64,000 bases of DNA from assembly GCA_016874735.1 (NCBI GenBank), contig VGTI01000008.1, positions 18,636 to 82,635 on the forward strand, read 5' to 3'. Positions 5,943 through 40,056 of this stretch are shown piece after piece (the first letter of the stretch is position 1; every line of letters begins with the position of its first letter). Source of the DNA: Deltaproteobacteria bacterium. Lineage in GTDB: Bacteria > Bdellovibrionota_B > Oligoflexia > Oligoflexales > CAIYRB01. A program made the position numbers and the translations under genes. Below the pieces are notes generated by a model, which was given only the letters and a program-made list of their open reading frames with translations, did no database searches and had not been told where the DNA came from.

Positions 5943-6095
5943 CGCTGGGTCCTCCCACCCGAACGATCGGCAGATTTGTCCCTCTCCTTAAACCAGAGTG
6001 CTCATCTATGGCATTTAAGTCATTGCTTATCTCAGTTTTTCACGGCGATCTGCCGATAGTATTGTGTGTGATTTGGTTTTGGGAGCAAAGTTAAG

Positions 6096-10661: not shown

Positions 10662-10676
10662 TCCTTCAAGTCGTCT

Positions 10677-16374: not shown

Positions 16375-17003
16375 TGCGTCCCAACATAAAACAAAAATTA
16401 CTGTTGATGAAAACAGTGCTGCTATCAGTACTTTTGTTGCCACTAGTTCATTTGGCACTAGCTTTTATGAACGATGATCTCGGCGCCAACCCCGTTGAGA
16501 GAATGACTCACGTCACTGGTGATTGGGCCTTACGGATCCTGCTCCTGTCACTATGCATGACACCCGTGCAACTCCTCCTCAAATGGCGCAAAGCTATACT
16601 GATGCGACGCCTCATTGGACTTACAGCCTTTGGTTATGCGGCCCTGCACTTCGGTGTTTATCTAGTTTTTGACCAAGAACTAAGCCTTGTCGGTACCATG
16701 ATCGATGTCAAAAAAAGACCGTACATCACGGCGGGATTTGCCGCACTCTGCCTGATGGTGCCGCTTGCCATTACCTCAACTGATCGCCAGATCAAGAAAA
16801 TGGGGAGCAAGAGGTGGCAGATGTTACACAAATCCGTGTACTTGGTTACCACGTTGGCGATTGTTCATTATTGGTGGCTAGTCAAGGCAGACATCACCAA
16901 ACCGCTCATATATGGGTTTATCTTTGCCGCATTGATGTTCCTGCGTCTTGGCAAACATAGCCTTAAGATGCGTATGCCTCTTCTTAAGAGGCCACCTCAG
17001 TAA
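16374..17003 (+). CDS. msrQ: MsrQ (YedZ) heme-binding membrane subunit
   Basis: Ferric-reductase-like 6-TM protein with conserved His residues (HFGVY, VHYWW). TGATG overlap with the msrP stop; the ORF opens at TTG 16371. Confidence 0.8.
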   Translation: MRPNIKQKLLLMKTVLLSVLLLPLVHLALAFMNDDLGANPVERMTHVTGDWALRILLLSLCMTPVQLLLKWRKAILMRRLIGLTAFGYAALHFGVYLVFDQELSLVGTMIDVKKRPYITAGFAALCLMVPLAITSTDRQIKKMGSKRWQMLHKSVYLVTTLAIVHYWWLVKADITKPLIYGFIFAALMFLRLGKHSLKMRMPLLKRPPQ

Positions 17004-19278
17004 CTACCTCATCAACCGCCTGATGTATCTCATGTCCGGCTAGTGCTGCGCTAAGAGATCTAAATATAAAATCGCACTGCCTGGATCCACCACCGTGGAT
17101 CTTGAAGCCGTGCTCGTTGCCGCTGTCAGACCGTTTACTCCACCGCACTTCCAAAGCGAATTCCGCCAGTAAAGCTTCTGCTAACAATGCATTTACCGCC
17201 GGATCTGAGGTCTCAATACGCGTTGAAATAATGGTTTGACGACCCAGGAGCCGGTCACCGATCGCGCGGAATCCATAACGCGAAAAATCCTGGACAACAA
17301 ATTCACCCACGTCGCTCTTGAGCCTGATTGCGCCACCGGATCTGAGCCTAAACCTCTGGTCTAGCGAGCGCATACCAATACGGTCCAAAAACACAGTCTC
17401 GGCGCGCTGCAGTAAATCCCTCGCCTCGCTAAAGGGATTAAATTCAAATGCCTGTAGTAACTTGGTCTGATGCTTGACGGCAATGGAGATGGGTGTAAAC
17501 ATGGACACATCTACCTCGGCGAGTTGGAGCTGCTCAGCTACGGCTGCGCTTACCATGATTTTGTAGGGACTGCAGGCCTCTTTTAAGCGGCTAGCGAAAT
17601 TAACACCAGCGCCGATCACTGTGAAATCAAGACGGTCTTGGTCACCGAGATTACCTACCGTCACCCTTGCCGTGTGTATGCCAATGCGCAGCGGCATGAT
17701 CATCTTACTGTCGCCGCAATCGAGAGCTCGTTTCACATTCATTTCCTGAATCCGCGATGCCGCCTTAAAAGCATCCAAAGACGGATCGAATGACTTACCT
17801 ACCCTCTTGTACCCGAATAAAGCCAAAACCCCAGCACCCATCGAACGATCAATCGAACCATTGTGCTCCTCAATGATTTTGAAAACATCATCCATGACAA
17901 GGGCTAGCTCTTGATAAATTCTCTCTTGTGACTGACCAACAGCAATTTCAGAAAAAGAGGCAATATCGATGAATATCATCGAAATATCCAATTGACTTGT
18001 ATTAAAATGCCCCGAAAACGACTCGTTGAGCAGTGCATTGAGTCGCACAAGATCACCATCTTTGCGGAACGCATTGATGATCTGCTTGTGGCGATTCTCC
18101 ATGTATCTAAGACGCAAACTCATTGACAACGAAAATGTGGCAGCACTTAATATAGCCCCAAAATGCAGCGCGCACTCCCGCACCTGAGTCGACTCCAAGA
18201 TTCCAACTTCAGCGAGAAGAAAGACCACGCCACCAACTAAGTAAAACGATATCGCTGTAGCAAAAAGAAAGACGAAACTCTTATTCATGTACCCCTGGTA
18301 TATGATTAAGTTGCGCGCAATTGCACCACCGGTGGCAAGCAGACCGATTTTAAAAATGATATCTGGACTGGCAAAGGCAAAACTCGCTGCCACAGCAATA
18401 GAAACATAAAGATGGATTTTTAAGTAACGATGGAGGCGGGGGAAGTTACGTCTATAGTCAAAAAATCTCCCCGCAAAAAGATAGATGAATACAAAGAAAA
18501 GACCAAACGCGACCGCAGCCATACGAAATTCGAACCCGCGCCCGATCGCTAGCTGCGGCAGTACTACTTTTGTAAAATGGGTAAAATATAGTGTGATAAT
18601 TACATTAGACGATAACCACATTGCCAAATAGGCAAAAGATAAATCTCTCAAAATAAAGAACAGGACTAATACATAAATGGTAAATCCAATGAGACAGCCA
18701 TTAAGAATTGCCCACTGAATTGTTAATTTCCGGACATAGACTCGATAATCACTCTCACGATAGACTTTGGGGACCACCGCCACATCGCCCTGAGACTCCG
18801 TTTTCACATAAAGCGTCGACGCAGCGGTCTTAGAACCAAACTGAAAATGATACCCATGGTCCGACTGACTCGCGAATGTTTCCGGGTAATCATCTCCCAC
18901 AGTGATATGGCGTTCGATATCCGCATTGGATACGAGATAAAAATCGATACGTGAAAAATCGAGGATTTTCGCCCCATGTAAACTCGCGATCCAATCCCCC
19001 TCTTGCTCAGGGAGTTCATCCAAGTCCAGTCGATACCAGTGGATCACCTTACCACCGTCAGGCTTCATTTTGCTTTTGCCATCAGTCGATTCCCAGGCCG
19101 AGGCGGGAAGTCTGATGACCTGCGCGATGTCTGTCGTTGTACCATCTAAGACCAAGTGATTAACAGGAACTGATTGATGTATGTCACTCCGAAAATCGGG
19201 TACCAGCAGTAACAACCCCAAAAAAAATACTGCTGGCAGACGCGACCATATTCCCAACATTGATGACTTAAGTCCCAT
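16984..19278 (-). CDS. 7TMR-DISM sensor / class III nucleotidyl cyclase / PilZ fusion protein (paralog retaining Asn-Arg but lacking the second metal Asp)
   Basis: Periplasmic N-domain with HWYRLDL, then 7 TM helices. Cyclase block IFIDIASFS...SMGAGVLALFG...RIGIHTARV...DFTVIGAGVNFASRLK. C-terminal PilZ motifs RFRLR and DFSRYG. Confidence 0.8.
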   Translation of the reverse strand: MGLKSSMLGIWSRLPAVFFLGLLLLVPDFRSDIHQSVPVNHLVLDGTTTDIAQVIRLPASAWESTDGKSKMKPDGGKVIHWYRLDLDELPEQEGDWIASLHGAKILDFSRIDFYLVSNADIERHITVGDDYPETFASQSDHGYHFQFGSKTAASTLYVKTESQGDVAVVPKVYRESDYRVYVRKLTIQWAILNGCLIGFTIYVLVLFFILRDLSFAYLAMWLSSNVIITLYFTHFTKVVLPQLAIGRGFEFRMAAVAFGLFFVFIYLFAGRFFDYRRNFPRLHRYLKIHLYVSIAVAASFAFASPDIIFKIGLLATGGAIARNLIIYQGYMNKSFVFLFATAISFYLVGGVVFLLAEVGILESTQVRECALHFGAILSAATFSLSMSLRLRYMENRHKQIINAFRKDGDLVRLNALLNESFSGHFNTSQLDISMIFIDIASFSEIAVGQSQERIYQELALVMDDVFKIIEEHNGSIDRSMGAGVLALFGYKRVGKSFDPSLDAFKAASRIQEMNVKRALDCGDSKMIMPLRIGIHTARVTVGNLGDQDRLDFTVIGAGVNFASRLKEACSPYKIMVSAAVAEQLQLAEVDVSMFTPISIAVKHQTKLLQAFEFNPFSEARDLLQRAETVFLDRIGMRSLDQRFRLRSGGAIRLKSDVGEFVVQDFSRYGFRAIGDRLLGRQTIISTRIETSDPAVNALLAEALLAEFALEVRWSKRSDSGNEHGFKIHGGGSRQCDFIFRSLSAALAGHEIHQAVDEVVTEVAS

Positions 19279-21568
19279 AATTCCCCCTTAACGGGGCGTC
19301 ACGGACGACTTTCATGTGCGTGGAAAAAACATGAATGAGAAGATCTACTTGCTTACTATTGCCGCCAAGTAATTTTATGCCATGCTCATATCCAGCCTCG
19401 GTCTTACGACTCCATCGGACCTCGACCACTAACTGATCCATGTATTTTTGTCGGAGTTTTTGATTAAGAATCTCTACACCCGTATCAATCTCGAGTTCCA
19501 TAATCACTTTTTGGGCAAAATAATGCTCGGAAATGACTCGCATGCCACTTGCGGAAAAATCTAACACCTGAAACTTCGCATGCGGCGCCTTGAGTGTGAT
19601 GACCTGTGTGCTAACAAGCGCATGGCGCGCCTCACGAGGAAAAACCCCAACCTGCGAAAAATACACTGATATGGCAGTCCTTAGATCCTCAGGCCGTGTC
19701 TTTTCCAAGCTAAACTCATAAGCTAGTGCCAGATTTTTTTGGTGTTTCAGGGAAACATTGACCGGAGAAAAAACGTCAGATTCAAGTCCACTTGCAACCA
19801 GTTTTTCGAAGCACATTGCGCTTATCATTACATTAAAAGGACTGCAGGCTTGCTCAAGATTACTGACAAAATTGACGCCATGGCCGACCATGGTAAAGTC
19901 AACGCGAAGGCCTCCACCTAGGTTAGCAAGTAACACTGTATCCGAATGGATGCCTATGCGCACTGGCAGCAACCAATCCTTTTCGTACTGTCCTTGTTTT
20001 TTTATCCGCAGTGCCTCATCTATCAGCATATTTTGAATGGCTACAGCGGCATGAAAGGCATCGCGGGCATGACCGGCACTGCTTTCATTTTTGCCCGTAA
20101 AAAAACAAAGTAATCCGTCACCCAACGAGCGATCGATAACCCCATGGTTGGCGACAATCAGACGCGTCAGTGAATTAAGTCGTCGGGACAGGTCGGCAAA
20201 TATATCAGAAGAAGCATCACGGTCTGCAACTAGCGAGAACGCCATGATATCGATATACATGATCGTGACATCAATTTCGCGACTGCTAATCGGTGCCAGA
20301 TTAAGCTCTGATTCGGTCAACGACTCCGTTAATTTGTTGCTTTCGCCGCGCAGTGACCGAACGATGCCACGATGCTTAAGCTCGAGCTGTCGAATGCGAT
20401 GCGTGGCTGCGGCTGACAGGAAGATGAAACCAAAGATGACGCCAGCATCGGCAAAATAATGGGCAAAATAACTAGCTGGGATGAAGCCTAACCAGGAACC
20501 CATCGAGATCACTACCGCCGGTAGAAATCCGCTCAGAAACATTCTGTAGTAAACCAGACTTCTGATCGGCCAGCGCATGATATCAACTATGGCTGTTGTA
20601 CAAACAGCGACATTAGTTACCGTGACCATCACGATCAGAATCGGCGACGCTCTAAAAATGGGGGCAAGCACAACCTCCAAAGCCGTGAAGGCTATGACAA
20701 ACTTTGCCCACGAGCTGAGATGATGACGGCCGAGGTCTCTAACGACATAACTGTGGTTCAGGAACATCAGTAGAAGTTGAGGGATCAGAATGATCTCCGC
20801 GATGATCAGGACGTGCACCGAAATATCGCGACTGAAATCGGGCCAAATGTAAAAAATCTGGCCACTAAAAAACAGTGGGAAGAATGCGTTGCCAATCTGT
20901 GAGGCTACCAACAACGCGTAGATCAGTTTACGTACGGTGAAGAGTAGGAGTAGGTTGTACATACAAAAGCTTAGATAAATCCCCGCCATAGCAGCGTGGA
21001 CCCAACTCCGAAGGGTCATCAGGGCGCGATGGTTCGCTTCCACGCCTATGAAAAGAGGCGCCACTATTGCCACGTCTGTCTCGAGACGCAGGTACAAAGT
21101 ACGATCTTGAGTGGTACTAGGGAGGAATTTGATGGTAGCAAATGGCGACTCGGTTTGACCCGGACGCTCTAAGCCACCGAAAGCCGACGCAACCACGGCT
21201 TGGGCCTCAACCAAATAAAAATCAACTTTACGGATCAGATGGTAACCAATTTCCGCGATGATTGGCTTTGGATCCGCCTGGGAGCGGACTTGGATCCGGT
21301 ACCAAACAGGCCGCACACTGCCCATAACTCCGAAGTGATGCTTGGCTTCTTTAGCCTCCCACGCCGACTCCGGTTGGTTTTTTATGTCGTCAATCGAGCT
21401 GATGTCCGTGTCTAACGGCCCAACGAAGCGCGCTGCACGGTAGTAAGTACCATCAAAACCGGCCGGATCAGGAGCAACCAGTGCAATGGTCAGAAAAACC
21501 AACGCGGGCGAGATCGCCATCAGTCGGTATGCCCAATCGGGAGGATTTCTGAACCAAGTCCGTATCAC
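19268..21568 (-). CDS. 7TMR-DISM sensor / class III nucleotidyl cyclase / PilZ-like fusion protein (paralog retaining both metal Asp but lacking the transition-state Arg)
   Basis: Same architecture as the downstream paralog. VWYRIQV, 7 TM, MYIDIMAFS...SLGDGLLCFF...RIGIHSDTV...DFTMVGHGVNFVSNLE. C-terminal REARH...DFSASG. The stop overlaps the downstream gene's start by 11 nt. Confidence 0.8.
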   Translation of the reverse strand: MIRTWFRNPPDWAYRLMAISPALVFLTIALVAPDPAGFDGTYYRAARFVGPLDTDISSIDDIKNQPESAWEAKEAKHHFGVMGSVRPVWYRIQVRSQADPKPIIAEIGYHLIRKVDFYLVEAQAVVASAFGGLERPGQTESPFATIKFLPSTTQDRTLYLRLETDVAIVAPLFIGVEANHRALMTLRSWVHAAMAGIYLSFCMYNLLLLFTVRKLIYALLVASQIGNAFFPLFFSGQIFYIWPDFSRDISVHVLIIAEIILIPQLLLMFLNHSYVVRDLGRHHLSSWAKFVIAFTALEVVLAPIFRASPILIVMVTVTNVAVCTTAIVDIMRWPIRSLVYYRMFLSGFLPAVVISMGSWLGFIPASYFAHYFADAGVIFGFIFLSAAATHRIRQLELKHRGIVRSLRGESNKLTESLTESELNLAPISSREIDVTIMYIDIMAFSLVADRDASSDIFADLSRRLNSLTRLIVANHGVIDRSLGDGLLCFFTGKNESSAGHARDAFHAAVAIQNMLIDEALRIKKQGQYEKDWLLPVRIGIHSDTVLLANLGGGLRVDFTMVGHGVNFVSNLEQACSPFNVMISAMCFEKLVASGLESDVFSPVNVSLKHQKNLALAYEFSLEKTRPEDLRTAISVYFSQVGVFPREARHALVSTQVITLKAPHAKFQVLDFSASGMRVISEHYFAQKVIMELEIDTGVEILNQKLRQKYMDQLVVEVRWSRKTEAGYEHGIKLLGGNSKQVDLLIHVFSTHMKVVRDAPLRGNYGT

Positions 21569-21624
21569 GCTGCACTCCTCCTACTCCGTATCGGAGGGGT
21601 GGTCGGCGGAACTTAGGTGGAGAC

Positions 21625-22128
21625 CTAGCCTTGGGAGTTGGCTAATTCATATTTAGCTGCGCTATCTCCGCGAATCTTGTAGGAAATCTTGCCATATTGG
21701 CTGTCCGTCGTACTGATATAGAGCCGCCCCCTGATCCACACTGGACCCCAAGAACGCTTGGGTGCCTGACCACTGCTCATCCGCACCATGACCATTTGAT
21801 TGGGCGGAGGAGGAGGCACATGGATGCAGGCCTGAGGACTAGGTACCAATAGAAATTCTGAAAGCCCCTGATCATCGTCTTCAAGCGGCACGACGAATCC
21901 CGGTACCTTGACCGGTTGACCATCAAGTTTAGCTAAGGCTGCTGGGATCTTTCCCGTCACTAAATCAAGCTCACGCAGCTGCAGCCAGTCGACTTCTTGG
22001 TAGGCATCATCGGCCAGTACTGGCTCTGACTCCGCGCTCAGTATATGCCAAGTCCAGTAGCCAGCTAGCACCAACACCGGAATCACGGCTAGTAAACAAA
22101 GAACCATTTTTTTGCGCAAAGGAATCAT
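21625..22128 (-). CDS. DUF3299-like periplasmic protein (ABC-exporter accessory)
   Basis: N-terminal TM anchor and the characteristic FLLVPSPQACIHVPPPPPNQMVMV block. 4-nt overlap with the upstream permease gene. Confidence 0.7.
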   Translation of the reverse strand: MIPLRKKMVLCLLAVIPVLVLAGYWTWHILSAESEPVLADDAYQEVDWLQLRELDLVTGKIPAALAKLDGQPVKVPGFVVPLEDDDQGLSEFLLVPSPQACIHVPPPPPNQMVMVRMSSGQAPKRSWGPVWIRGRLYISTTDSQYGKISYKIRGDSAAKYELANSQG

Positions 22129-23402
22129 AAGCGAATCACCAGTCCGTCACTTAAACTGTGGCGATAGGCACGCCAGGCGGGAATCGCACCAAGAATGAGT
22201 CCGCACATCATTATGGCGCCAAAATAAAAAATCTCGACGGACGAGAACGATTCAACCGCAAGATGAAACCCGAAATGATTAGCCACAACGGGCTGCATCA
22301 CCCATAGTAAAACCCGCGTGAGTATGATCCCTAGCACTGCGCCAGAACCGACCAGTATCCCAGCTTCAGTGACAAGGAGGCCGAAAATGAGTCCGGGCGT
22401 GGCGCCTAAACTTCGGAGAATAGCCATCTCCCGACGCCTTTCGCTTAAGGAATTGTAAACGGATACCAGCATCCCGGTGAGACCGACTAAGACCACAAAT
22501 ACAGCAACTAGCCTTAGAGCATCCTCGCCGTAAGCTAACCCCTGCCAAAGCTCGTCCAACGCCACACCAGGCATCACTGCCGTGAGTGGCTCAGTTTTGA
22601 AGTCATTCCAAAAACGCTGCATCGTCAAAATATCCATTTTTGATTTAGCACCAACAAAGACGGCCGAAATCTCTTCGATAGCAAAATTCTTTGCCGCCAA
22701 CTCAGACGTCCTTAGTGCTTGATCACGTCGCGGAGGCGCTCCGTCTTCCCAACCATGATGAATGGCCTCGAGTCCCGCTAAAGGTATGAAGATTGTTCGG
22801 TCAACCGGACTACCCGTCGGCTGCAAAATACCGGTCACATGGAACGGATGATCCTCGTGTTTGTGGAAAGAAACCTCACCCACGCCGTGACTGAGCGCTA
22901 GCTTTTCACCAAGTCCGTAATCTAGGCGGCGCGCAACAGCACTGCCAATGACCGCGGCGAAGAGATCGCCACTCCCGGCATCGGCACTAAATCCCCCCGC
23001 GGCAAACTCAAGTTTTTGCTGACGTCGCGTCTGAAAATGTTTGAAAAAATCAGACGTCGTTGCCACAACACGGTAGCTTCGGTGACTGTCCCCCATCGTG
23101 ATCGGCACCGCCCAGGCCGTTTTCGGATCGGCTTGAATCGCTTTAAAAGTAGCAAATTTCATGTTAGCCGTCGGACTGCCGATATGAAAAACAGCATTGA
23201 GCAGCAGCGGCAAAGTGCCCCCGCGCGAGCCCACGATCAAATCAGTCTGACTGATAGCGCCGGTGAAACTTGCATGGGCACCGACGCGAATCCGTTCTAC
23301 AAGCATCAAAAGCGCCGTCGAGAGCCCAATCGACAGGATCGTCAAGCTGGTGACTAGGCGCCGCATGGCCAAGGATTTCCATGCAAGTTTGCACAATATC
23401 AC
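22125..23402 (-). CDS. FtsX/MacB-type ABC transporter permease
   Basis: N-terminal TM, a large periplasmic domain, and a C-terminal FtsX-like 3-TM bundle (RRREMAILRSLGA...). Confidence 0.8.
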   Translation of the reverse strand: MILCKLAWKSLAMRRLVTSLTILSIGLSTALLMLVERIRVGAHASFTGAISQTDLIVGSRGGTLPLLLNAVFHIGSPTANMKFATFKAIQADPKTAWAVPITMGDSHRSYRVVATTSDFFKHFQTRRQQKLEFAAGGFSADAGSGDLFAAVIGSAVARRLDYGLGEKLALSHGVGEVSFHKHEDHPFHVTGILQPTGSPVDRTIFIPLAGLEAIHHGWEDGAPPRRDQALRTSELAAKNFAIEEISAVFVGAKSKMDILTMQRFWNDFKTEPLTAVMPGVALDELWQGLAYGEDALRLVAVFVVLVGLTGMLVSVYNSLSERRREMAILRSLGATPGLIFGLLVTEAGILVGSGAVLGIILTRVLLWVMQPVVANHFGFHLAVESFSSVEIFYFGAIMMCGLILGAIPAWRAYRHSLSDGLVIRL

Positions 23403-24142
23403 GGACGTTGCTCCCTAAAACGCTGCGCTATCCGGTTCAGGGCAGGAAGCGAGCACTTGCGATGAAAATGGCGCCCTAGACTTTGGTCATGGCTGACAAA
23501 AATCACCGTCGCCTGGGAGTCATCGGCAATCGAACTGAGGAGCGCGATAAACTCATCACGGTGATCGACATCTAATGCTGAAGTAGGTTCATCCGCAATG
23601 AGTAGTCGCGGAGCTCCGATAAGAGCGCGGGCAGCTGCTACGCGCTGTTGCTCACCGACACTAAGCTCAGTTACCGACTTATGCAGGAGATGTTTGATAT
23701 CGAGTCGTACTGCTAGTGCCGTGGCAGCTGCAGTGGGCGAGGCTCCTGCAAGATTAGCCTGGCGTGCTCTGCTGATCGTACACGGCAGGATGATATTATC
23801 CATGACATCAAGATAAGGAATCAGATTGAACATCTGAAATATGTAACCGATATGATCGCCGCGAAATAGATCTCTCGATCGCGCACTCATGCCGCCCAGT
23901 GCGACACCATCGACGGCGACTTGGCCACTGTCTGGGCTAATGATGCCAGACAGAAGCCCAAGCAAGGTGGTCTTGCCACTGCCGCTTGGGCCGTGAATAA
24001 AGACTCGCTCGCCCCGACTCACCTTGAAGGCGGGAATATCAAGAATCTCCCGCCCTGCTTTGTAGGAGTACTTAAGCGAGCTGATTTCGATTGCCGGAAT
24101 CGCTTGGTTCAAATGCGCCTCGAAGCTGAGGATTTTGGTCAC
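23399..24142 (-). CDS. ABC transporter ATP-binding protein (LolD/MacB-type)
   Basis: Walker A GPSGSGKTTLL, signature LSVGEQQRV, Walker B LLIADEPTSALD. 4-nt overlap with the permease gene. Confidence 0.9.
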   Translation of the reverse strand: MTKILSFEAHLNQAIPAIEISSLKYSYKAGREILDIPAFKVSRGERVFIHGPSGSGKTTLLGLLSGIISPDSGQVAVDGVALGGMSARSRDLFRGDHIGYIFQMFNLIPYLDVMDNIILPCTISRARQANLAGASPTAAATALAVRLDIKHLLHKSVTELSVGEQQRVAAARALIGAPRLLIADEPTSALDVDHRDEFIALLSSIADDSQATVIFVSHDQSLGRHFHRKCSLPALNRIAQRFREQRP

Positions 24143-24175
24143 CCTAATGGCTAGCCCCGTAGGCCTGTCACTAAT

Positions 24176-24226
24176 GCACAGTCCGAAAAAAATCTACGAA
24201 ATTAGTTTGCTTCGGTACAACTGTGC
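24176..24226. repeat. extended inverted repeat in the fliG-ABC spacer
   Basis: GCACAGT-CCGAA ... TTCGG-(TACA)-ACTGTGC. 12 bp of pairing with a 4-nt bulge and a 23-nt A/T-rich loop. Confidence 0.3.
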
Positions 24227-24237
24227 TCCGCCACAGA

Positions 24238-25233
24238 CTAAACGTAGACTTCGTCCTTACTCATAATGGTAATCTTGCCGTCAGCCGCTAGAGCCTGAGC
24301 TAAATCGGCGAGTTGTTGCTGGGCGGCTTGAACCTCTTGCAGGCGCACTTTAGGTAGAGCTGCGACATCGTCGCGTAGTAATTTTGCGGCACGCTCGGAG
24401 AGGTTCTTATAGATGTGCCGACTGGTAGCGTCGTCTGCCTGTTTCAGGGCCAGGCGCAAAGTCGCCGCGGGCACCTGGGCCAGCAGAGCCTGCATGTCGC
24501 GATCACTGAGGCGGGTTAGATCGGCGAAAGTGAAGAGTTGCCTGCGGAGTTGCGCCGCCATTGTGGGGTCACGCCCCTCTATATCTACGATAAGTTTTTC
24601 AGCCTGAGCCTGTGGCATGACATGCAGCAGCCCAACCAGCTTGGCTGGACCCCCGACCGCGTGTGCGGCGATCTGAGAACGGCTGCGACTCTCCTTCAGA
24701 GCCTCAGCGACAGCTCTTAAACTTGCCAAATCGACATCACCAAGCTTGGCCAACCGATGGACTGCCTCCGTTTGCAGGGCTGGCGGCAGTAAACCGATCG
24801 CTTTGGCTGCCTGCTGGGGTAGACAGTGCGCGAGCACCACAGCCATGGTTTGAGGAGCCTCAGCCTGTAACCATTTGGCCATCGCCTCTGGTGCCATTTC
24901 ACCAACTAGTTCAGCTAACTCCTGAGATGCGACCGCTGCCTCACTCACTAAGGTAGCAGCCTCACGCGACCGCCCGGCTAGCTGCAGAATACGCTGCGCG
25001 GCTTCCGGCGTGCCGGTCAGCTGCGGCCGGTAATTGACTAATGTCTGGTAAAACTCCCCCGACACCATTTGGACGACCGAGCCGTCAACCTGTCCCAGCC
25101 GACTCATGGCTGCCGCGATGCGGCTTACCTCGGCCGGCTGCAGGTGCCCGATAATCTGACTGGCTACGTCCTCCCCTAAACTCAGGAGCAGGATAGCCGC
25201 CTTCTCAGCACTAGACAGTTTGACTTCGGTCAT
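24238..25233 (-). CDS. fliG: flagellar motor switch protein FliG (orphan copy in this window)
   Basis: 331 aa, colinear by eye with E. coli FliG. Matching blocks: AAILLLSLGED, EAPQTMAVVLAH (EHPQ block), LFTFADL, NLSERAAKLLRDD (torque-helix R/DD), KVRLQEV, and C-terminal DEVYV. Confidence 0.85.
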   Translation of the reverse strand: MTEVKLSSAEKAAILLLSLGEDVASQIIGHLQPAEVSRIAAAMSRLGQVDGSVVQMVSGEFYQTLVNYRPQLTGTPEAAQRILQLAGRSREAATLVSEAAVASQELAELVGEMAPEAMAKWLQAEAPQTMAVVLAHCLPQQAAKAIGLLPPALQTEAVHRLAKLGDVDLASLRAVAEALKESRSRSQIAAHAVGGPAKLVGLLHVMPQAQAEKLIVDIEGRDPTMAAQLRRQLFTFADLTRLSDRDMQALLAQVPAATLRLALKQADDATSRHIYKNLSERAAKLLRDDVAALPKVRLQEVQAAQQQLADLAQALAADGKITIMSKDEVYV

Positions 25234-25328
25234 GACCTGCCGCCCCCCCTAAAGGAGGCATCGGCTAAACTCAGATTTCACTTGAGTCAACCAATTGAAT
25301 CAGCGACTTACGCCAAAAGCAGCGAAGT

Positions 25329-25529
25329 TCAGTGACAGCATTTTTTGGATTTTTTACCCGATCCACAGGGACAAGGATCGTTGCGGCCGACCTTGGGTTC
25401 GGCACGCACGTAGGTCTCGACCTGGTGATGGTTGTGATGGTGGTGGCGGCAGCCGGGACCGTGCACATGGTCATCGGGGGAGGCTTCCACAAATTTCACC
25501 GGCTCTGTCGCTTGGTTTTCTGCCGTCAT
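25329..25529 (-). CDS. small His-rich SEC-C-motif metal-binding protein
   Basis: C-terminal [19 protein letters not shown] (SEC-C zinc motif) preceded by [15 protein letters not shown]. Overlapping ORFs in other frames have skewed composition. Confidence 0.6.
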
Positions 25530-29937: not shown

Positions 29938-32079
29938 TTAGAGTGGATTGAAGACGAAAGGATAGTTGACTGATACTGACTGGCCACCACGAGGCTTGGG
30001 GAACGCCCATCGCCTCATCTTATCGGTGACACATCCTCTCATGACCGCGTCATTGATGGTGTCCTGCGACACTGTGACGGAAGATACGCGGCCAGAGGTA
30101 TCGATCACGAATGAGGTTCCCATCTTACCTGAAGCGCTGGGCGATCTCTGCAGAAGCTGCTCATAGCAGTGGCGGATCTGGTTTAAGTTGGCCCGGATCA
30201 CCGCCATAATTTCCTGCGAGGTCAATCCACCCGATACCACCGGGTCACCTGCTGGTACCGATACGTTCGCTCTGCCGTGACCACCAGCACCACCAGCACC
30301 ACCGGCACCGCCACCGTTACCAAACCCGGGTCCAAGTCCCGAGCCTCCGCGACCACCGGTGCCGCCCTGACCGCTCAGTAAACCTCCCGAGCCGGAGCCG
30401 AAGTTGTTAACTGCGCCACCGGCACCAGCTAAACCCAGGGACTTGCCAGAACCCAAGCCGCCCAGACCGTAAGTCTTGGCTCCGGATCCCATACCACCAC
30501 CGGCACCACCGGCCGAGTCCTTGAAGTTCGAGGAAATCGCACCTGCTCCCGTCTTGCTCATGATCTTACCGACGCCTAAACCGAGTTTAGACAGGTTCAC
30601 GCCCGACGGCTTGTCGTTGTTCGCTCCCTCGACACCCATGACACTGGCTTTGTTGTTGCCTTTGATGGCGCCACCAGCCTGGTTCATGCCTGACCCCACC
30701 GCACCACCAGACTTGCCGATAGCAGTGTTCGGCAACGTTGGACCTGCGGCTTTGAAGTTTGGATCCTTCGCACCAGTTGAGGGCATACCAGCCGACAGCT
30801 TATTGAGGTTCGGTTTAGTCGACGGTGGTCCCGCCGGCTTCGCCTCCGCTGGTTTGGGCTCCGGAGTAGGTTTGTTCTCTGTTAAGACCTCTGTTGGCTT
30901 TTTCTGCTCAACGGGCTTCTCAACAGGTTTGGTTTGAACTGGCTTCTCCGTCTCCGTCGGCTTGGCCGGTTTCACCTCCGGTTTTGGCTTCGGTGGTGGT
31001 GGCTTCTTCGGAGGCGTTTTGACTTCAGCTATCTTGACCTCGGGTTTTGGCTTCTCTGGTGGCTTGGGTTTTTCTTTTTCAGGCTCTTTTTCAGGGACTG
31101 AAACCACCTGCCAGATGTCTTCTTTCTCGTCTTTCTTCTCTGCAGGGACGTGAATCCATGCGATAGGGATCAAGATCATGTAGAAAAGCATCGCAACAGA
31201 CATCAGCCCGAAGAAGAATGGGTCTCGAAGTCCGCGTTTCGGGAAATCTAGTGGCGGTGGCTTCACAAACATCAGGAAGTAGCTCACCGCGCCGTACTTG
31301 ATATGCGCGATGTCACGGCTGCCTAGGGAAATATCGCCAGGCTTTGTCACTTTGTCGACTTTGCCGCCTTTACGTAACCTGGCCGTCATACCGTCGACGA
31401 GCGAGATTTTATAGCCGCTGCTACTAAATCTGGCTAAGGGATGTACTTCTATGTCGGAACTGCCTGCAGCGATCAAGTGAGACTTTGTAGGATTACCGAT
31501 CGTGACACGGTCGTAACCCTTGGTCGATGGATGGAATAGTTCCACATCGAGTACGGTGTCGCCCCAGTAGGCCACGACTTCGAGCACGTCTCCACTGGGC
31601 TTAGCTTTACGTGGAGAGAATAGCAAGTCCAGTTGGCGTTCGGATGCTTCGACGCGCGCTTCACTTGGTTCGGGACTACGACTAGGGACCGAGTCCTCGC
31701 GTCGTTCGCGGTCCTCAGGAGCCTTCACGGTGGCACCGTGGCGCTGCCCGTCAGTGGTGTCTACGTGGGGCACGGCCGCAGCCGCATGGCCCACCACTTG
31801 AATCTGAATGGTTCCGACGGTGAGAACATCACCGGCCCTTAGCGGTGATTCAACCTCGACAAGCTGATCGTTGACCTTGATGCCTGATACCGAACCCAAG
31901 TCGGTGACTACATATTCACCTGGATTGGGCTCTTCTATCAAAGCGTGAATGGGGTCGACACCAGGTGCCCGAAGTACAACTTGGTTCGACAGCAATGCTC
32001 CAATTTTCATTGGAGGCTGATCGACAGGTACCTGCCGCTCAACTTGACCTGGAATCGTGAATCGCAACTCAAGAGACAT
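29938..32079 (-). CDS. FHA-domain / single-TM / Pro-Lys-rich / Gly-rich TonB-like protein with an AgmX/PglI-type C-terminal domain (GltG/PglI-like)
   Basis: N-terminal FHA (IGALLSNQVVL...HALIE...YVVTDLGSVSGIKVND). TM FFFGLMSVAMLFYMILIPIAWI. PEKEKPKPPEKPKPEVK spacer. GGxGG tract. C-terminal IRHCYEQLL...GCV...WAFPKP...VNYPFVFNPL. Confidence 0.75.
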   Translation of the reverse strand: MSLELRFTIPGQVERQVPVDQPPMKIGALLSNQVVLRAPGVDPIHALIEEPNPGEYVVTDLGSVSGIKVNDQLVEVESPLRAGDVLTVGTIQIQVVGHAAAAVPHVDTTDGQRHGATVKAPEDRERREDSVPSRSPEPSEARVEASERQLDLLFSPRKAKPSGDVLEVVAYWGDTVLDVELFHPSTKGYDRVTIGNPTKSHLIAAGSSDIEVHPLARFSSSGYKISLVDGMTARLRKGGKVDKVTKPGDISLGSRDIAHIKYGAVSYFLMFVKPPPLDFPKRGLRDPFFFGLMSVAMLFYMILIPIAWIHVPAEKKDEKEDIWQVVSVPEKEPEKEKPKPPEKPKPEVKIAEVKTPPKKPPPPKPKPEVKPAKPTETEKPVQTKPVEKPVEQKKPTEVLTENKPTPEPKPAEAKPAGPPSTKPNLNKLSAGMPSTGAKDPNFKAAGPTLPNTAIGKSGGAVGSGMNQAGGAIKGNNKASVMGVEGANNDKPSGVNLSKLGLGVGKIMSKTGAGAISSNFKDSAGGAGGGMGSGAKTYGLGGLGSGKSLGLAGAGGAVNNFGSGSGGLLSGQGGTGGRGGSGLGPGFGNGGGAGGAGGAGGHGRANVSVPAGDPVVSGGLTSQEIMAVIRANLNQIRHCYEQLLQRSPSASGKMGTSFVIDTSGRVSSVTVSQDTINDAVMRGCVTDKMRRWAFPKPRGGQSVSVNYPFVFNPL

Positions 32080-32218
32080 GGGAATCCTTCCCGCGCTATG
32101 AACCGGAACTTAGACGGTCAGATCGGTCAACTTCAATGGGTAGTTGGAGGTAATCACTTTCATTATCCCGCTTGCCGCAACAAATGAAAAGACTCAAAAC
32201 TAAACTGATGCATTCTTA

Positions 32219-33403
32219 TTATTTTTCGTCACCACCGGACTCTTCGTCGGCACCGTCACCACCACCGTCTTCAGCCTTCGAAGCCGGAGCTTTGGGCTTG
32301 TCGCCAGGAGGTGCCGCCCCAGCTCCCTTAGCCTTTTCATTCGCGGCCTTTTCGGCCGCGGCTTTATCTGCGGCTGCCTTATGTGCAGCAGCTTTGGCTG
32401 CCTTCGCTTGCATTTCTTCGCGCTTGGCCAGGGCTTCCTCAGCGTCAATCTGAGCGATCATGAGAAAGGCCTTTTCGTTCCAACCCTCAGCCGTCAACTT
32501 CGCTTTACCGGCTTTGGTAAAGTACTCTTTCGCTTTGGCTAAATTCCGTTTGTTTTGATATTCGACCAAACCACAGTTGAACAATGCAGCGCTGTGCTCA
32601 GGCTGCTTTTTCAAGACTCGGTCGCAGTTCTCAATCGCTCCCCCAACGTCGCCATCGAGGCGCTGCAGGGTAATGAGGCCGTACGAGACGAACCAATCGT
32701 TTTCAATTTTACCAAGTAGTTGCTTGGCCATGCCAAGCTCGCCACCTTTGAGAGCTATAAAACCAAGATTTAGATGAGCCGGCTTGTAACTTGGGACTGC
32801 CTTTAATGCCTCTTTAAAATACAGCACAGCCTCTGGCACCCGATCATCTTTAAGGGCCACCACACCCATCGCATTGTAGGCGCCAGCCTTTACATGCACA
32901 TTTTTGGACTCGGTCAGATCTTGTAGTAGATACTCGGCAAAAGAAAAATTACGTGCCTGCAGCGCAGCTAACGCGATCTCAAGCTTTACTTCACCGCTTA
33001 GCTGACGCGACGCGCCTTTTTCCATTTGGGTCTCGGCAAGCTTCTTGGCTGTAGCAAGCACTTCACCAAGATTTTTGCGTGCTAAGCGTTGCGTCGATAT
33101 GACACCTTGCAGAGCGAGCTCTCCCTTGCCAGCCTTGAATCGCGCAATTTCAGCATCTGCCTTGGCGACCGCGATGGTTTGTGACGTTAGTGGATTGTTT
33201 CCAAGGCTATTGGTGAGAGTGACCCGGTTGGCTGAAGCTTTTTCCGGCCCTTCATCTTCTTTGTCCTTATCAGCACTCACCGGTTCTTGCTCGCCCTTAG
33301 TGGGAGCATCTTTTTTTTCAGCACTGGTACAAGCCGACAGCCAACTCATGACTGCTGCTGATATAGCCACATAGACAGATTGTGCTCTGATCACTGGCAT
33401 CAA
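32219..33403 (-). CDS. TPR-repeat lipoprotein (GltE/AglT-like)
   Basis: Lipobox WLSAC. Several TPR-like A-x-x-x-Y/F...P helices. Low-complexity Ala/Lys/Glu tail. 4-nt overlap with the upstream TPR gene. Confidence 0.6.
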   Translation of the reverse strand: MMPVIRAQSVYVAISAAVMSWLSACTSAEKKDAPTKGEQEPVSADKDKEDEGPEKASANRVTLTNSLGNNPLTSQTIAVAKADAEIARFKAGKGELALQGVISTQRLARKNLGEVLATAKKLAETQMEKGASRQLSGEVKLEIALAALQARNFSFAEYLLQDLTESKNVHVKAGAYNAMGVVALKDDRVPEAVLYFKEALKAVPSYKPAHLNLGFIALKGGELGMAKQLLGKIENDWFVSYGLITLQRLDGDVGGAIENCDRVLKKQPEHSAALFNCGLVEYQNKRNLAKAKEYFTKAGKAKLTAEGWNEKAFLMIAQIDAEEALAKREEMQAKAAKAAAHKAAADKAAAEKAANEKAKGAGAAPPGDKPKAPASKAEDGGGDGADEESGGDEK

Positions 33404-36400
33404 TCCCCCTTACCTTTGACTTCTTGGGCGACATTTTCGGGGACCTCAGCACCAACAAAGTCAGGGCGGACTATCAGGTCGTCAAAGCTGATCTTCTTAC
33501 CTTGAATTCGTGCCACACCGCTCAGCGCCTTGGCAGCCCATTCATTGTACACCAGATACTTACCCACCGCCTCTAGCGCTTTGTTATAGAAGGCCAAGGC
33601 CTCCTTACGCGCGGCCTGTGCATCGCCCGAGAGTTGCTTCACCACATCAGCATGGGGCGCACCCTTGATTTCAGGAGGATTCTCGAGGTCACGCGCAATC
33701 AACTCGCGTGCATAACCGAGTTGGTAAAAGGCGGCCACGCCCCAGTAAGCATCTTTCGTAGCTAGCACCTGGTCGTAGGCGGCTTGAATTTTTGCTAGAG
33801 CACCCACCTTTTGTTGAATCGAGCCCGCCAGGGCATCGACGGTACCGCCCTTAAGACGCAGGCTTTGGAAAGGTCCGATCACATTGTTGACGCGTCGGAA
33901 TACTAGACCGCCTACAGCACGCAGGGCCTCTCCCGAAACGTTACCGCCCGACTTCTGGAAGGTCGTGATGATTTCCTTGGCGGCAGCTTCAGACGCACTA
34001 CCGCGTGTATTCATGACAACGGCGTAGGCTTGAATGCGCTCCTCAGGCGTCAACTTAAACTTACCGTCCAGGATCTTAGCCATCTGAGCCACGCGGCCTT
34101 CTTCGCCCGCCGAGAACGCGGTCCTGAGCATACGGAAGAAGATGATCTTAGCACTTGCCTGATCGGCCTGAGCAAACTCAAGACAGCTGGGCACTGCAGC
34201 TTCAGCCCCCAGCGCCGCTTCAACCTCGCAGGTATAAGCCAATGCCGTCGTCGTCTCTTTTTCCTTCGGATAACGACGAGCAAAGTCGTGGAAAAGTTTT
34301 GCAGCAGATCCGAGCTCAAAGCGGTTCTGATGAAGTACAGCGAGTCTTAGGAGCGCTGGCTTAGCTCCCTCAGATTTCGGGAATTTTTCGAGCACTATCG
34401 AGTAGTCACGAATCGCGTCGGTAGCTTTGTTACACTTTTCCCAATCGAGTGCAGCATTGTAAATCAGCGCATCGCTATCCTTCGCGGTTGGACGCTTTTT
34501 AAAGAGATCCTCGGCTTTCTTCGCACGCGAGCAGGCGTTTTTATCCGACTTGATTGCGTCAACTGCTAGGCCACGATCGAGATTGTCGAGTTTTTCGCCA
34601 ATTTTACCCTTTTGGTATGCCGGGATTTTGCGCAACTCCGTGATCACAGCAGCTAGGGCCTTCTCGTCCTTGGCGTAAAGAGGGATGAGGTTTTCTACCG
34701 CTTCCTGACCCTCACGCTCATTCGGATACTTTTTGGCCAACATGACGAGATATTTCTCGGCCATCTTGCGATCGTTACTGCGATAAAAAATCTCTGTCAG
34801 ATAAGTATCGCAAGACTTTACGTTCTTTTTGTCGTTCGGATAGGCTTTGGTGTAGTACTCACATGCTTTAACAAAATTACGCCCGTTTTCCGTAATTGGT
34901 CGCGCTGGTTTCGAGAAGTCGGCCTTTTGCTTGACCAGAACTTTGAGCTCCGGTTCGAAGTTTCGATAATAAGACTCAAGCATGTATTCAGCAGCTTGCT
35001 TGTGGATGTTGGTCGATTTATTGGTCTTGGGATCCACGATCAGGGCGCGGTCATTGCCCATGAGACATATGTCTAGATAAAGCTTCCCAGCCTCACGGTA
35101 CTGCTTGGTGAAGTAGTAAATGTCGGCCATGTTGTACTTGATTTCGGCAACTTCACGGGCTTTGGGATAATTCTTGAGGAATAAAGCATAACCACGCAGC
35201 GCCTCGGCATAACCGCGCTTGTTGTCGTCTTTCTGCGCATTCTTGTGCGTCAGTTTAGAGTAGTAGACGATCTGATCTTTGATCGTTTGTTGTGTTTCAT
35301 CAAATAGTTTTTTGTCGTCTTTATGCTTGTCTCCCCAGGGACTATTGGGACCGAAGAGTCTGGGGTAACGATCCAGCTCCACCCAAACTTCATTGAATCG
35401 CCCAAGCTCGTAAAAGAGAGCGATGATGCTCTTCTGGGTGTCCGGCACATCTTCAGCCAGGGGTGCTACCTGCTGATAGCGTCTCAATACCTTGATCGCT
35501 TCGGCAAACTGGCCTTGATCGGAGAACGTGTCAGACAATAGCAAAAGGAATTTGCCAATGAATTTATCGCCACCATTGGCCTTGTAGTAGGCGATGGCAG
35601 GTTCGATTTCGCGCAATTCGGCAAAGGCATAAACCATGTCGCGTAGCGCTTCGTCGTGTAGAGCGATTCCGGCTTTGCCGTTGCGATTAGCCTCAGTCAC
35701 GGTCTGCTTCCAGTAGGCTAATGCTTGTTTGTGCTGGCCAAGGTTGTAGCTACACCAACCTAATTTGAACAGTGACCAGGCGTACGACTTTGCCTGTTTA
35801 AAACGCAGAGCATTCTTATAGTTGCTCATGGCATTACTGTACTGAATATCCTCGAAGTAATAGTCACCCAGGGCGTAGTAGGCATCGCCAGCCTTTTGCG
35901 AATTTGGGAACTTTGTAATGAGCTGGCTGAAGATCTTGGCCGCCTCCGTACCTTTATTGAGTACGTTATAGGCAAGACCCATGTTGAACATGGTTACGTC
36001 CGCATTTTTAGCCGTCGGAAACTCTGCCAATAGGTTCTTGGCATCTTTGGCCAGCGTCTGCCACTGAGTTTTAGATTCAGACTCGTCAAGCTTGGGTTCG
36101 CGCCCTTTGCGCCCCCCGCGATCCCAAGCGTCCCAGGCCTTTTCGTATTTGCGCATCTCTTGGTTGGTGTAATAAACCGCAGCCTCGAGCCGCAGGTTGA
36201 CCAAGCGTTCCTTCATGTCGAGACGGGTCTGACTCTTCTTAGGCATCCGCTCGGACTGACTGGCAAGATAATTGGTCGCTTTATTGATCTCGCCGATGAG
36301 TTTTGATTCGGTGGCCACCATGAAGGCTTCGTTGGCGGACAGCTTACTTGATGCCGCCTTTTCTGGGCCCTTCTTCTTGATTTTCTCTTGTTTGACGTCA

Positions 36401-36549
36401 TTGAGATTAACTTGAGCTGTCTTTTGACTAATGGCCAAGACCGTACCCGACAGCGCCAAGAATAGCGGCGCAACTGCCGTAATGCGGATCAATTTCGTTA
36501 GCCATAATCTTTTCAAGATCACTTCCTCACAATTTAATCGTCGCAACAT
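33400..36549 (-). CDS. large TPR-repeat protein (GltD/AgmU-like)
   Basis: 1049 aa with an N-terminal hydrophobic anchor and many TPR-like repeats (e.g. AMSNYKNALRF, ALAYWKQTV, GDAYYALGDYYF). Confidence 0.6.
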   Translation of the reverse strand: MLRRLNCEEVILKRLWLTKLIRITAVAPLFLALSGTVLAISQKTAQVNLNDVKQEKIKKKGPEKAASSKLSANEAFMVATESKLIGEINKATNYLASQSERMPKKSQTRLDMKERLVNLRLEAAVYYTNQEMRKYEKAWDAWDRGGRKGREPKLDESESKTQWQTLAKDAKNLLAEFPTAKNADVTMFNMGLAYNVLNKGTEAAKIFSQLITKFPNSQKAGDAYYALGDYYFEDIQYSNAMSNYKNALRFKQAKSYAWSLFKLGWCSYNLGQHKQALAYWKQTVTEANRNGKAGIALHDEALRDMVYAFAELREIEPAIAYYKANGGDKFIGKFLLLLSDTFSDQGQFAEAIKVLRRYQQVAPLAEDVPDTQKSIIALFYELGRFNEVWVELDRYPRLFGPNSPWGDKHKDDKKLFDETQQTIKDQIVYYSKLTHKNAQKDDNKRGYAEALRGYALFLKNYPKAREVAEIKYNMADIYYFTKQYREAGKLYLDICLMGNDRALIVDPKTNKSTNIHKQAAEYMLESYYRNFEPELKVLVKQKADFSKPARPITENGRNFVKACEYYTKAYPNDKKNVKSCDTYLTEIFYRSNDRKMAEKYLVMLAKKYPNEREGQEAVENLIPLYAKDEKALAAVITELRKIPAYQKGKIGEKLDNLDRGLAVDAIKSDKNACSRAKKAEDLFKKRPTAKDSDALIYNAALDWEKCNKATDAIRDYSIVLEKFPKSEGAKPALLRLAVLHQNRFELGSAAKLFHDFARRYPKEKETTTALAYTCEVEAALGAEAAVPSCLEFAQADQASAKIIFFRMLRTAFSAGEEGRVAQMAKILDGKFKLTPEERIQAYAVVMNTRGSASEAAAKEIITTFQKSGGNVSGEALRAVGGLVFRRVNNVIGPFQSLRLKGGTVDALAGSIQQKVGALAKIQAAYDQVLATKDAYWGVAAFYQLGYARELIARDLENPPEIKGAPHADVVKQLSGDAQAARKEALAFYNKALEAVGKYLVYNEWAAKALSGVARIQGKKISFDDLIVRPDFVGAEVPENVAQEVKGKGD

Positions 36550-36565
36550 CTAAACAAATCTATTG

Positions 36566-38122: not shown

Positions 38123-38146
38123 TATCCGTTCTGATGACCATACACT

Positions 38147-38896
38147 TTAGAAAAAAGTCGACATCCCGAACTGCAACGTCACGTTTTGTTGAAAATCTGT
38201 TCCAGTCGATACACCCGGATTACAGGATCCATCGGCAACCTGATAAACAAAGAAATTGTCGCGAACGTCCCATCGAATCGCAGTATCTTCGCTAAGGAAA
38301 TATTTCTGGCCAAACCCGATAATCGCACCTGGGTAACTCTTAGTGGTGGGAGCCGGCTTCTCCACATCTGGCGCCACACACTGAGCGTAATCATAGGCGA
38401 TACCTGTCATGCCGGCTTCGAATGTCAGGAAAGAATCGAAATAAACCACATCCCCGGTCGGTAGCTGAGTCTTGCCGTAAATCGGTGTCCATAAGAATCC
38501 TCCCGCTGCCATGTAGGAGGTGCGTAGAATCTGGGTTGTGATCTGAAAGTCGCGCTTCAGGAGGGTCTTGTCTTGCTTATCGAAGGACAGTCCGAAGGCG
38601 CCGTTGATCTCAAAGGCCAAAGATTCGCTGAAATGATAATCAAGCAGGCCCGAGGCCATGAGCGAATAGATGAACGATTGGTTCAAAATGAAGACACCTT
38701 GACCGCCAAGCTCGAGGCGATTGGATTTGGTCATGAAGCGTGGGCGAATGACCCTAATTTCGTACCCTGAGAAGCGATCATCGTTTGCCATAGCATCGGG
38801 TGTAAAAGCACCAAAAGCCATAACAGAGGCTAAGAGCAGACCGCGCGCCAGGACGCCAGCATTAGATTTTTTTTGTGTCAGTTGGGTCAAAGCCAA
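38147..38896 (-). CDS. small outer-membrane beta-barrel protein (GltA/GltB/GltK-type)
   Basis: Signal peptide ...PDAMA. Alternating beta-strand pattern. C-terminal FGMSTFF. Size and RxELGGQG...YHFSESLAFE pattern resemble the myxobacterial OM barrel family. Confidence 0.6.
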   Translation of the reverse strand: MALTQLTQKKSNAGVLARGLLLASVMAFGAFTPDAMANDDRFSGYEIRVIRPRFMTKSNRLELGGQGVFILNQSFIYSLMASGLLDYHFSESLAFEINGAFGLSFDKQDKTLLKRDFQITTQILRTSYMAAGGFLWTPIYGKTQLPTGDVVYFDSFLTFEAGMTGIAYDYAQCVAPDVEKPAPTTKSYPGAIIGFGQKYFLSEDTAIRWDVRDNFFVYQVADGSCNPGVSTGTDFQQNVTLQFGMSTFF

Positions 38897-38918
38897 TCCA
38901 CTCCGCTGCTCGCAGCCT

Positions 38919-39419: not shown

Positions 39420-39457
39420 GCCTTCACCCCGTAGCGATCTGATGCTTTAGATAAAAA

Positions 39458-40003: not shown

Positions 40004-40056
40004 AGACGTCCTTTAGCAACTTCCTTTGAGCGAATGACACCATCCGGAGCAATCCG

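Follow-up and report, generated by a model that had tools for sequence, protein, structure and literature searches.

In this study, we analysed a 64-kb stretch of DNA (64,000 nucleotides of contig VGTI01000008.1, assembly GCA_016874735.1), the whole of which is called the window below, and showed that an isolated open reading frame (ORF) in it encodes a genuine FliG-family protein, here named FliG-B. As a rule, FliG is encoded once per genome and evolves slowly, as a core component of the flagellar motor. Sequence comparison indicates that FliG-B is a second, divergent paralog and not the primary or sole rotor protein of its genome, since a far more conserved protein, FliG-A, is encoded on other contigs of related assemblies. 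We favour, with a probability of about 0.55, the reading of FliG-B as a lineage-specific second paralog that acts, as an accessory or alternative rotor subunit, on the flagellar motor also served by FliG-A. The host appears to be an uncultured, flagellated freshwater bacterium of Oligoflexales/Bdellovibrionota-like affiliation; matches to isocitrate dehydrogenase carried no names finer than 'Proteobacteria' and, in one case, 'Bdellovibrionota'.

Two FliG proteins in one lineage

The fliG-B gene (24238..25233, minus strand) starts with ATG and encodes 331 aa with the three domains of the family, as judged from the ORF, Pfam, a full-length alignment and an AlphaFold2 (AF2) model. The Pfam scores (FliG_N 86.3, FliG_M 69.4 and FliG_C 110.5 bits) are all well over the cutoffs, and the protein aligns end to end with the solved FliG structures of Salmonella, Vibrio and Aquifex (E 1e-33 to 1e-37). 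The AF2 model has a mean pLDDT of 80.2, and its top 22 fold matches in the PDB are all FliG; the C domain reaches TM scores of 0.85–0.92 (FliG_C bound to MotAB, 8ucs_H, is among these matches) and the M domain 0.76–0.82. At NCBI the protein is labelled hypothetical (FJ146_06535, accession MBM4251609) in a metagenome-assembled genome (MAG) named 'Deltaproteobacteria bacterium'. The original prediction, made from the letters of the window, had placed and sized this gene correctly, and the colinearity with E. coli FliG that it described was borne out over the full length at 29% identity. Its description of the gene as canonical did not hold: FliG-B scores 196.7 bits against the equivalog model TIGR00207, under the cutoff of 226.7 bits (clade members 204–209 bits), and a better FliG is present in the same genomes.

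This better copy belongs to a large family of 328–333-aa FliGs (FliG-A) recovered by profile search, which includes proteins named FliG by NCBI in 'Oligoflexales', 'Deltaproteobacteria' and 'Proteobacteria' MAGs. FliG-A scores 341 bits against TIGR00207, passes the cutoff and has an intact EHPQ block. By contig look-up, assembly GCA_026390435.1 carries FliG-A (P0324) on JAPLFY010000037 and FliG-B (P0004) on JAPLFY010000120, while GCA_900299215.1 carries FliG-A (P0330) on OMIY01000434 and FliG-B on OMIY01000234. The copy number is two per genome in these related assemblies; so, between a scattered flagellar gene and a FliG paralog, the two possibilities raised originally, it is the paralog that gains support, and the gene is not the only fliG of its genome.

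The MAG of the window very probably carries FliG-A as well, to judge from several indirect but consistent lines of evidence. The accession of the matching FliG-A (MBM4253164) lies about 1,555 numbers from that of the window FliG-B (MBM4251609), a proximity also seen for MCX6105413 and MCX6107464 in the Pavin MAG (cluster look-up), and the first two proteins both occur in sequencing run SRR7990526. The SLT gene beside fliG-A is 66.9% identical to the Pavin copy, as against about 65% for the window's own neighbour genes.

The fliG-A locus is conserved and stands alone, in the order SLT(-), small ORF, fliG-A, 205-aa ORF, tgt(-) and arginase(-); an Oligoflexales locus (L010) has the same fliG-tgt-arginase order, and in the Pavin MAG a flagellin gene lies 8.6 kb from fliG-A. 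Because FliG-A and FliG-B reside together, fliG-A is itself a stand-alone gene and flagellin is encoded nearby, the lineage is flagellated with dispersed flagellar genes, and the gene in the window is the second copy. In most genomes fliG-A is flanked by a conserved ORF of 85–98 aa and a 205-aa ORF without family matches; the latter could be a divergent FliH.

Conserved residues and uneven divergence of FliG-B

FliG-B has diverged far more than its co-resident paralog. Between the Tanganyika and Pavin genomes, FliG-A is 91.6% identical (dN 0.062) and FliG-B 55% identical (dN 0.40), so that the FliG-B protein has evolved about 6.5 times faster in the same genome pair. The divergence is uneven: identity is 53% in the N domain, 41% in the FliM-facing M domain, which is the most diverged part, and 67% in the stator-facing C domain, which is the best conserved. 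Since dS is saturated for both proteins, no numerical dN/dS is given; with dN at 0.40 and dS saturated, dN/dS is expected to be well below 1, which indicates purifying selection on FliG-B. No clade member has a broken reading frame, even at identities as low as 52%.

The residues on which FliG function depends are mostly retained. All six clade members carry the same torque-helix charges, K264, R281, D288, D289 and R297 (E. coli numbering), and G194 and G195 of the Gly-Gly linker are invariant. The MFxF hinge between the M and C domains reads LFTFADL in the window and L/M-F-T-F across the clade, with F234 and F236 kept. The original prediction named the hinge, the charges and an EHPQ-like block; the first two are present as described, but the block reads E-A-P-Q in the window. 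In this EHPQR block, H126 is replaced by Ala or Val in all clade members; E, P, Q and R are kept (E125, P127, Q128 and R160 are given as invariant), with E changed to D in one member. The block forms the FliM-binding surface, and in Vibrio the substitutions H145E and H145W, at the equivalent of H126, abolish motility (PMC6290876). Among the positions that are at least 85% conserved in 35 other FliGs, only L107, H126 and M278 are replaced throughout FliG-B.

The distribution of FliG-B is narrow. It was found in only three GTDB species representatives and is reduced to a single one when 1.84 billion proteins are clustered at 50%; the next match falls from 546 to 358 bits. The nearest proteins outside the clade are 45% identical to FliG-B and roughly as similar to FliG-A. 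In a bootstrapped neighbour-joining (NJ) tree the FliG-B clade has 100% support and joins P0007 (94%) on a long branch, while by mean distance FliG-A is the nearest group. Duplication followed by acceleration would be the simplest reading of these sequence data. As the distribution is narrow and the NJ tree gives no deeper placement, an origin independent of spirochete FliG1 is suggested.

P0007 itself belongs to a separate FliG-like group (P0007, P0359, P0369, P0370 and P0379) of full-length proteins with 43–47% mutual identity, in which D289 and R297 are lost; several members have W for F234 and a C-terminus that reads ...EAV. In the one context seen (L005 2538-3536), the gene lies between kdpA and a phosphodiesterase gene and flagellar genes are absent. 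These proteins are candidates for non-torque FliG derivatives.

Promoters and transcripts

A predicted FliA (sigma-28)-type promoter, TCAAG-N16-CCGATG, lies upstream of fliG-B at 25259..25285 (minus strand) and ends 25 nt before the ATG. It agrees with the FliA consensus at nine of 11 positions (TAAA-N15-GCCGATAA / TTAAG-N16-CCGATA, PMC3627812), a consensus that comes from Bdellovibrio, another organism. Its spacing is identical to that of the TTAAG-N16-CCGATA consensus mapped in Bdellovibrio bacteriovorus (PMC3627812). The element is the same in the related loci L004/L007, and reads TAAAG-N16-CCGATC in L001 and TAAAG-N16-CCGAGG in L008; the -35 and -10 blocks are thus kept at all fliG-B loci, while the rest of the spacer has diverged. 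The 5' leader (25234..25258, minus strand) is short, with the G-rich ribosome-binding site (RBS) GGGGGGG; the relatives have GGAGG here, and a GGAGG-like block is conserved in the alignment.

No FliA-type site was found within 700 nt upstream of fliG-A at nine loci. The blocks common to the fliG-A upstream regions are instead a palindrome, GTCAAAAAAATGAC, and GGCGTCAAG(A/T)TTCCGCCGTAGA (L024 9870-10000; L028 2520-2636; L029 and L032).

The motif is enriched in the window as a whole. AAG-N15-GCCGAT occurs three times where 0.6 is expected, and a window-wide scan for FliA-type sites returned ten, of which six have the right orientation and stand no more than 100 nt before a gene, including one that overlaps the start as called; 0.22 are expected in such positions, and none of 300 shuffles reached six. 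These sites (TTAAG-N15-17-CCGATA-like) are at 1261-1288(+), 5965-5991(-), 10653-10679(-), 21589-21616(-), 25259-25285(-) and 54133-54158(+). Five of the six lie 21–61 nt upstream of the starts of an unknown gene, an outer-membrane protein (OMP) beta-barrel, a nucleotidyl cyclase (cyclase 2 below), fliG-B and a patatin-like lipase. The remaining site, TAAAG-N16-CCGATG at 10653-10679(-), overlaps the mechanically called TTG start (10661) of a 1034-aa NAD-glutamate dehydrogenase, the true start of which is probably further downstream. By analogy, this pattern suggests that the motif marks a broad programme extending beyond flagellar genes, like the attack-phase regulon of Bdellovibrio.

The predicted FliA-type promoter of cyclase 2 (21589..21616, minus strand) reads CTAAG-N17-CCGATA and lies 21 nt before the start, and its CTAA and CCGAT blocks are conserved in L004 and L008. 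Since both genes have conserved FliA-type promoters, co-regulation of fliG-B and cyclase 2 is probable. In L004/L007, a further AAG-N15-GCCGA site, at 3073-3096(+), precedes a 1027-aa gene without family matches by about 47 nt. This gene, followed by a 346-aa ORF, makes up an insertion between the genes for the ClC channel and DedA that the window lacks.

Downstream of fliG-B, the spacer to the ABC ATPase gene (24143..24237, minus strand) can fold into a long imperfect hairpin (minimum free energy -32.5 kcal/mol, z = -2.7). It is possibly the 3' end or a stabiliser of the fliG-B transcript, but counts as weak evidence because no significant structure was found at the corresponding position in L001 or L008. 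A simple terminator scan stayed at background level, and an Rfam scan returned tRNA only.

Genes around fliG-B

Apart from fliG-B, Pfam scans of all large ORFs of the 64-kb window returned no flagellar domain, and a tblastn search with E. coli FliE and FliF gave no match in the window or in any related fliG-B locus. At seven ordinary FliG loci the search did recover fliE-fliF, immediately upstream, and is for that reason a valid control. The absence of flagellar neighbours noted originally was thus confirmed, and so was the gene order, which runs SEC-C, fliG, ABC, FtsX, DUF3299, cyclase 2 and cyclase 1, all on the minus strand.

The genes for the ABC ATPase, the FtsX/MacB-type permease and the DUF3299 protein (21625..24142, minus strand; Pfam) are conserved downstream neighbours of fliG-B. 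The ABC genes adjoin fliG-B at every clade locus, save that in L004 (10968-12080(-)), and likewise in L007, an Fe-dependent alcohol dehydrogenase (Fe-ADH) gene lies between them on the opposite strand, its 3' end overlapping the fliG-B stop region by about 29 nt. Directly upstream of fliG-B, at 25329-25529(-), is a gene for a 66-aa His-rich protein (HHHHNHH) with a C-terminal SEC-C zinc-binding motif; it is kept in L004/L007 (74% identity) and absent in L001 and L008. Both cyclases are present in L004/L007 and L008 and absent in L001. As colinearity among the related MAGs extends over about 20 kb, in which the neighbouring housekeeping genes are 55–88% identical, conserved gene order is expected from relatedness alone. 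An operon of fliG-B with the ABC/DUF3299 genes and the cyclases was rejected in view of the separate promoters, the Fe-ADH insertion in L004/L007, the lack of the cyclases and the SEC-C gene in L001, and the general synteny. The string with PilZ-cyclases in which the original prediction had embedded fliG is, on the same evidence, neither a transcription unit nor an obligate partnership.

The two cyclases are tandem receptors of the 7TMR-DISM / class III nucleotidyl cyclase / PilZ-like type (16984-19278 and 19268-21568, minus strand; Pfam), frequent but non-obligate neighbours of fliG-B. They share about 25–28% identity. In each, 7TMR-DISMED2 and a 7TM region are joined to a class III adenylate/guanylate cyclase, and a PilZ-like domain forms the C-terminus; it is unusual to see a cNMP cyclase fused with a putative c-di-GMP-binding domain. 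Known targets of PilZ proteins include FliG and MotA. The PilZ assignment made earlier stood in part: D-x-S-x-x-G is present in both proteins, but the Pfam PilZ score of cyclase 2 is marginal (22.4 bits against a cutoff of 22.5), cyclase 1 has no Pfam PilZ match, and RxxxR occurs in cyclase 1 only and is degenerate in its L004 ortholog. No YcgR N domain was found in either cyclase by Pfam scan.

Two sets of genes in the window had been described as MotA/ExbB-type and stator-like. Both proved to be of the TolQ/TolR-ExbB/ExbD type with negligible MotA scores, and were rejected as stators for FliG-B. The window also holds, at 29938-40734(-), a gliding-type (Agl/Glt-like) cluster that encodes a TolQ-like protein, a pair of ExbD/TolR-like proteins, an OMP_myx_plus barrel and three TPR proteins, one of which has 1049 aa. 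It also encodes an FHA protein with a Pro/Lys-rich linker and a C-terminal AgmX/PglI (GltG/GltJ-like) domain.

Discussion

In the mechanism that we propose, FliG-A would build the rotor early, and FliG-B would be made together with the FliA-dependent motile-phase genes. It would then serve that motor too, either as an accessory subunit of the rotor or as an alternative one. Its N domain would dock on FliF and its conserved C domain contact MotA-type stators, while its coupling to FliM/CheY switching may be altered.

Several points weigh against this reading or limit it. The mechanism is wholly inferred for every clade member. The survey was made at the level of contigs rather than whole genomes, so that the presence or duplication of fliA, fliF, fliM and motAB lay beyond its scope. 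FliG-A is assigned to the MAG of the window indirectly, through accession proximity, a common sequencing run and matching divergence rather than one assembly record. The NJ tree fits a duplication of FliG-A as well as a transfer and gives no resolution to the deeper placement. A flagellar role does not follow from the fliG-B promoter, nor does a specific link to the cyclases, because FliA in Bdellovibrio also drives many non-flagellar genes (PMC3627812) and five other genes of the window carry the motif; the Pavin flagellin promoter (L024, CTAAA-N16-TCGATG) is weaker, with eight of 11 consensus positions.

The loss of the EHPQR histidine and the score below the TIGR00207 cutoff are likewise not diagnostic when taken alone. 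Two FliGs encoded directly after fliE-fliF (L016 9992-10963 and L017 5145-6128, from a 'delta proteobacterium' and an Anaeromyxobacteraceae MAG) carry EQPQ and score 207 bits, which means that the cutoff misses genuine flagellar FliGs in some lineages. The low score was therefore rejected as proof of a non-flagellar role, and the histidine loss was downgraded as proof of lost FliM binding.

Among the rival explanations, it is unlikely but conceivable that FliG-B works in soluble form rather than in the ring, as a regulator (be it decoy, brake or clutch) which binds MotA-type stators through its intact torque helix or caps FliF, possibly under control of the neighbouring cyclase/PilZ receptors. 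The contrast between the C domain (67%) and the M domain (41%), the latter without the EHPQR histidine, would fit this, as would a late-type promoter unlike that of fliG-A, the conserved FliA-type promoter of cyclase 2 and the known action of PilZ proteins on FliG and MotA. However, selection still acts on the N domain and on the ARM elements that form the ring, and E125, P127, Q128 and R160 are invariant; a pure decoy could do without these features. L001 lacks the cyclases, no YcgR-type N domain was found in them, and a FliG decoy is without precedent. The chances are poorer that FliG-B has left the flagellum for a different machine, such as one of the 5:2 motors of the TolQR/ExbBD/Agl-Glt type encoded in the window, which it might serve as a cytoplasmic adaptor. 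Its fast evolution, the lack of flagellar neighbours at every FliG-B locus and the presence of the GltG/GltJ-like gliding-type cluster and two TolQR-type sets could be read in this way, but the neighbourhood is plain conserved synteny, and the isolation of fliG-B is uninformative because fliG-A is equally isolated. The five kept charges are those that pair with MotA, whereas the local ExbB-like proteins are of the TolQ/ExbB type with negligible MotA scores; only three family-invariant positions have changed, and the promoter is of the FliA type. The recruitment to another rotor or signalling context that was proposed originally is thus not shown, given that nearly all family-invariant residues are kept, the promoter is of the FliA type and the lineage has flagellin. 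A bolder variant, to which we attach a similarly small chance, would make FliG-B a rotor-derived regulator or adaptor that is produced with the FliA programme and engages 5:2 stator-type motors off the C-ring by means of its intact torque helix. Under cyclase/PilZ control, it would either sequester or redirect MotAB or couple to the TolQR/Agl-Glt-type motors of what is a gliding-capable lineage; if true, a FliG would here be seen for the first time at work away from the flagellar rotor.

The remaining explanations deny FliG-B a distinct role or question the pairing itself. A redundant duplicate drifting to loss would evolve far faster than FliG-A and be narrowly distributed, as FliG-B is at one representative among 1.84 billion proteins clustered at 50%; this is nevertheless very unlikely, as the frame is intact in all members down to 52% identity, dN/dS appears to be well below 1, the functional residues are invariant, and promoter and RBS are conserved. 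A binning artefact, in which two co-occurring organisms contributed FliG-A and FliG-B to one MAG, has to be considered because all genomes are MAGs and the link is indirect for that of the window. It is a highly improbable account when independent assemblies from separate lakes and studies show the same pairing (GCA_026390435.1, GCA_900299215.1 and the Tanganyika sample), the flanks of both loci are equally diverged (SLT 66.9% against about 65%) and the contig GC is similar (0.505–0.53). We give the least credence to FliG-B as the only fliG of the organism, an ordinary rotor gene scattered from the other flagellar genes. Such an arrangement would suit a lineage with dispersed flagellar genes, in which fliG-A and flagellin also stand alone, and it agrees with the retained functional residues, the FliA-type promoter and the finding that fliEF-linked FliGs can fall below the TIGR00207 cutoff; but two assemblies, and very probably the MAG of the window, hold a much better conserved FliG on another contig, from which FliG-B differs by its 6.5-fold faster evolution.

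An accessory or alternative rotor subunit, the reading that we prefer, would be an extra FliG copy in which the stator-contacting charges are kept while the switch-facing domain evolves freely, under a promoter class unlike that of the main copy. If FliG-B does join the motor, the lineage would be a natural experiment in rotor heterogeneity and could show torque generation uncoupled from CheY/FliM switching, or re-tuning of the motor after assembly. For annotation, an isolated fliG need not be an orphan, a second FliG may hide under the NCBI label 'hypothetical', and the TIGR00207 cutoff misses genuine fliEF-linked FliGs.

Compared with canonical FliG (TIGR00207; E. coli, Salmonella and Thermotoga), FliG-B has the same length, three domains, Gly-Gly linker, MFxF-type hinge, E, P, Q and R of EHPQR and five charges. 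It differs in the sub-cutoff score, the Ala or Val in place of histidine, the lack of fliF or any other flagellar gene nearby and the 6.5-fold faster evolution than FliG-A, and it is neither the sole nor the best FliG of its genome. The neighbouring cyclases resemble the YcgR-type PilZ brake in that they end in a PilZ-like domain with D-x-S-x-x-G and appear to be co-regulated with fliG-B; however, they fuse a 7TM receptor to a class III cyclase, have no YcgR N domain and are missing from one of the genomes with FliG-B.

The FliA attack-phase regulon of B. bacteriovorus has the same promoter spacing, and there too the motif stands before non-flagellar genes, which here encode an OMP, a patatin and a cyclase; in our case the regulon is predicted from promoter sequence. 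Cultured Bdellovibrio and Bacteriovorax have fliG inside a flgBC-fliEFGHIJ cluster (PMC12827227), whereas fliG-B lies outside any cluster of this type. Because these cultured relatives keep the usual cluster, the dispersed arrangement and the extra fliG are features of the window lineage.

In a literature search for FliG paralogy, only the FliG1/FliG2 pair of spirochetes turned up. In Borrelia burgdorferi, FliG2 is required for flagellar assembly, while FliG1 is dispensable for assembly, asymmetrically localised and encoded apart (PMC7225975). The situation in our lineage is alike in that each genome has two FliG paralogs, FliG-A being the conserved, model-passing copy and FliG-B a divergent extra at a non-flagellar locus. 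It differs in that the Oligoflexales-like lineage is unrelated, both genes stand alone, and FliG-B, which retains every charge of the torque helix, is preceded by a FliA-type promoter; the likeness is one of situation. By this analogy, FliG-B may be the functional counterpart of FliG1 beside FliG2, and the FliG-A/FliG-B pair is apparently a second, independent case of FliG paralogy, in Oligoflexales-like bacteria related to the predatory Bdellovibrio.

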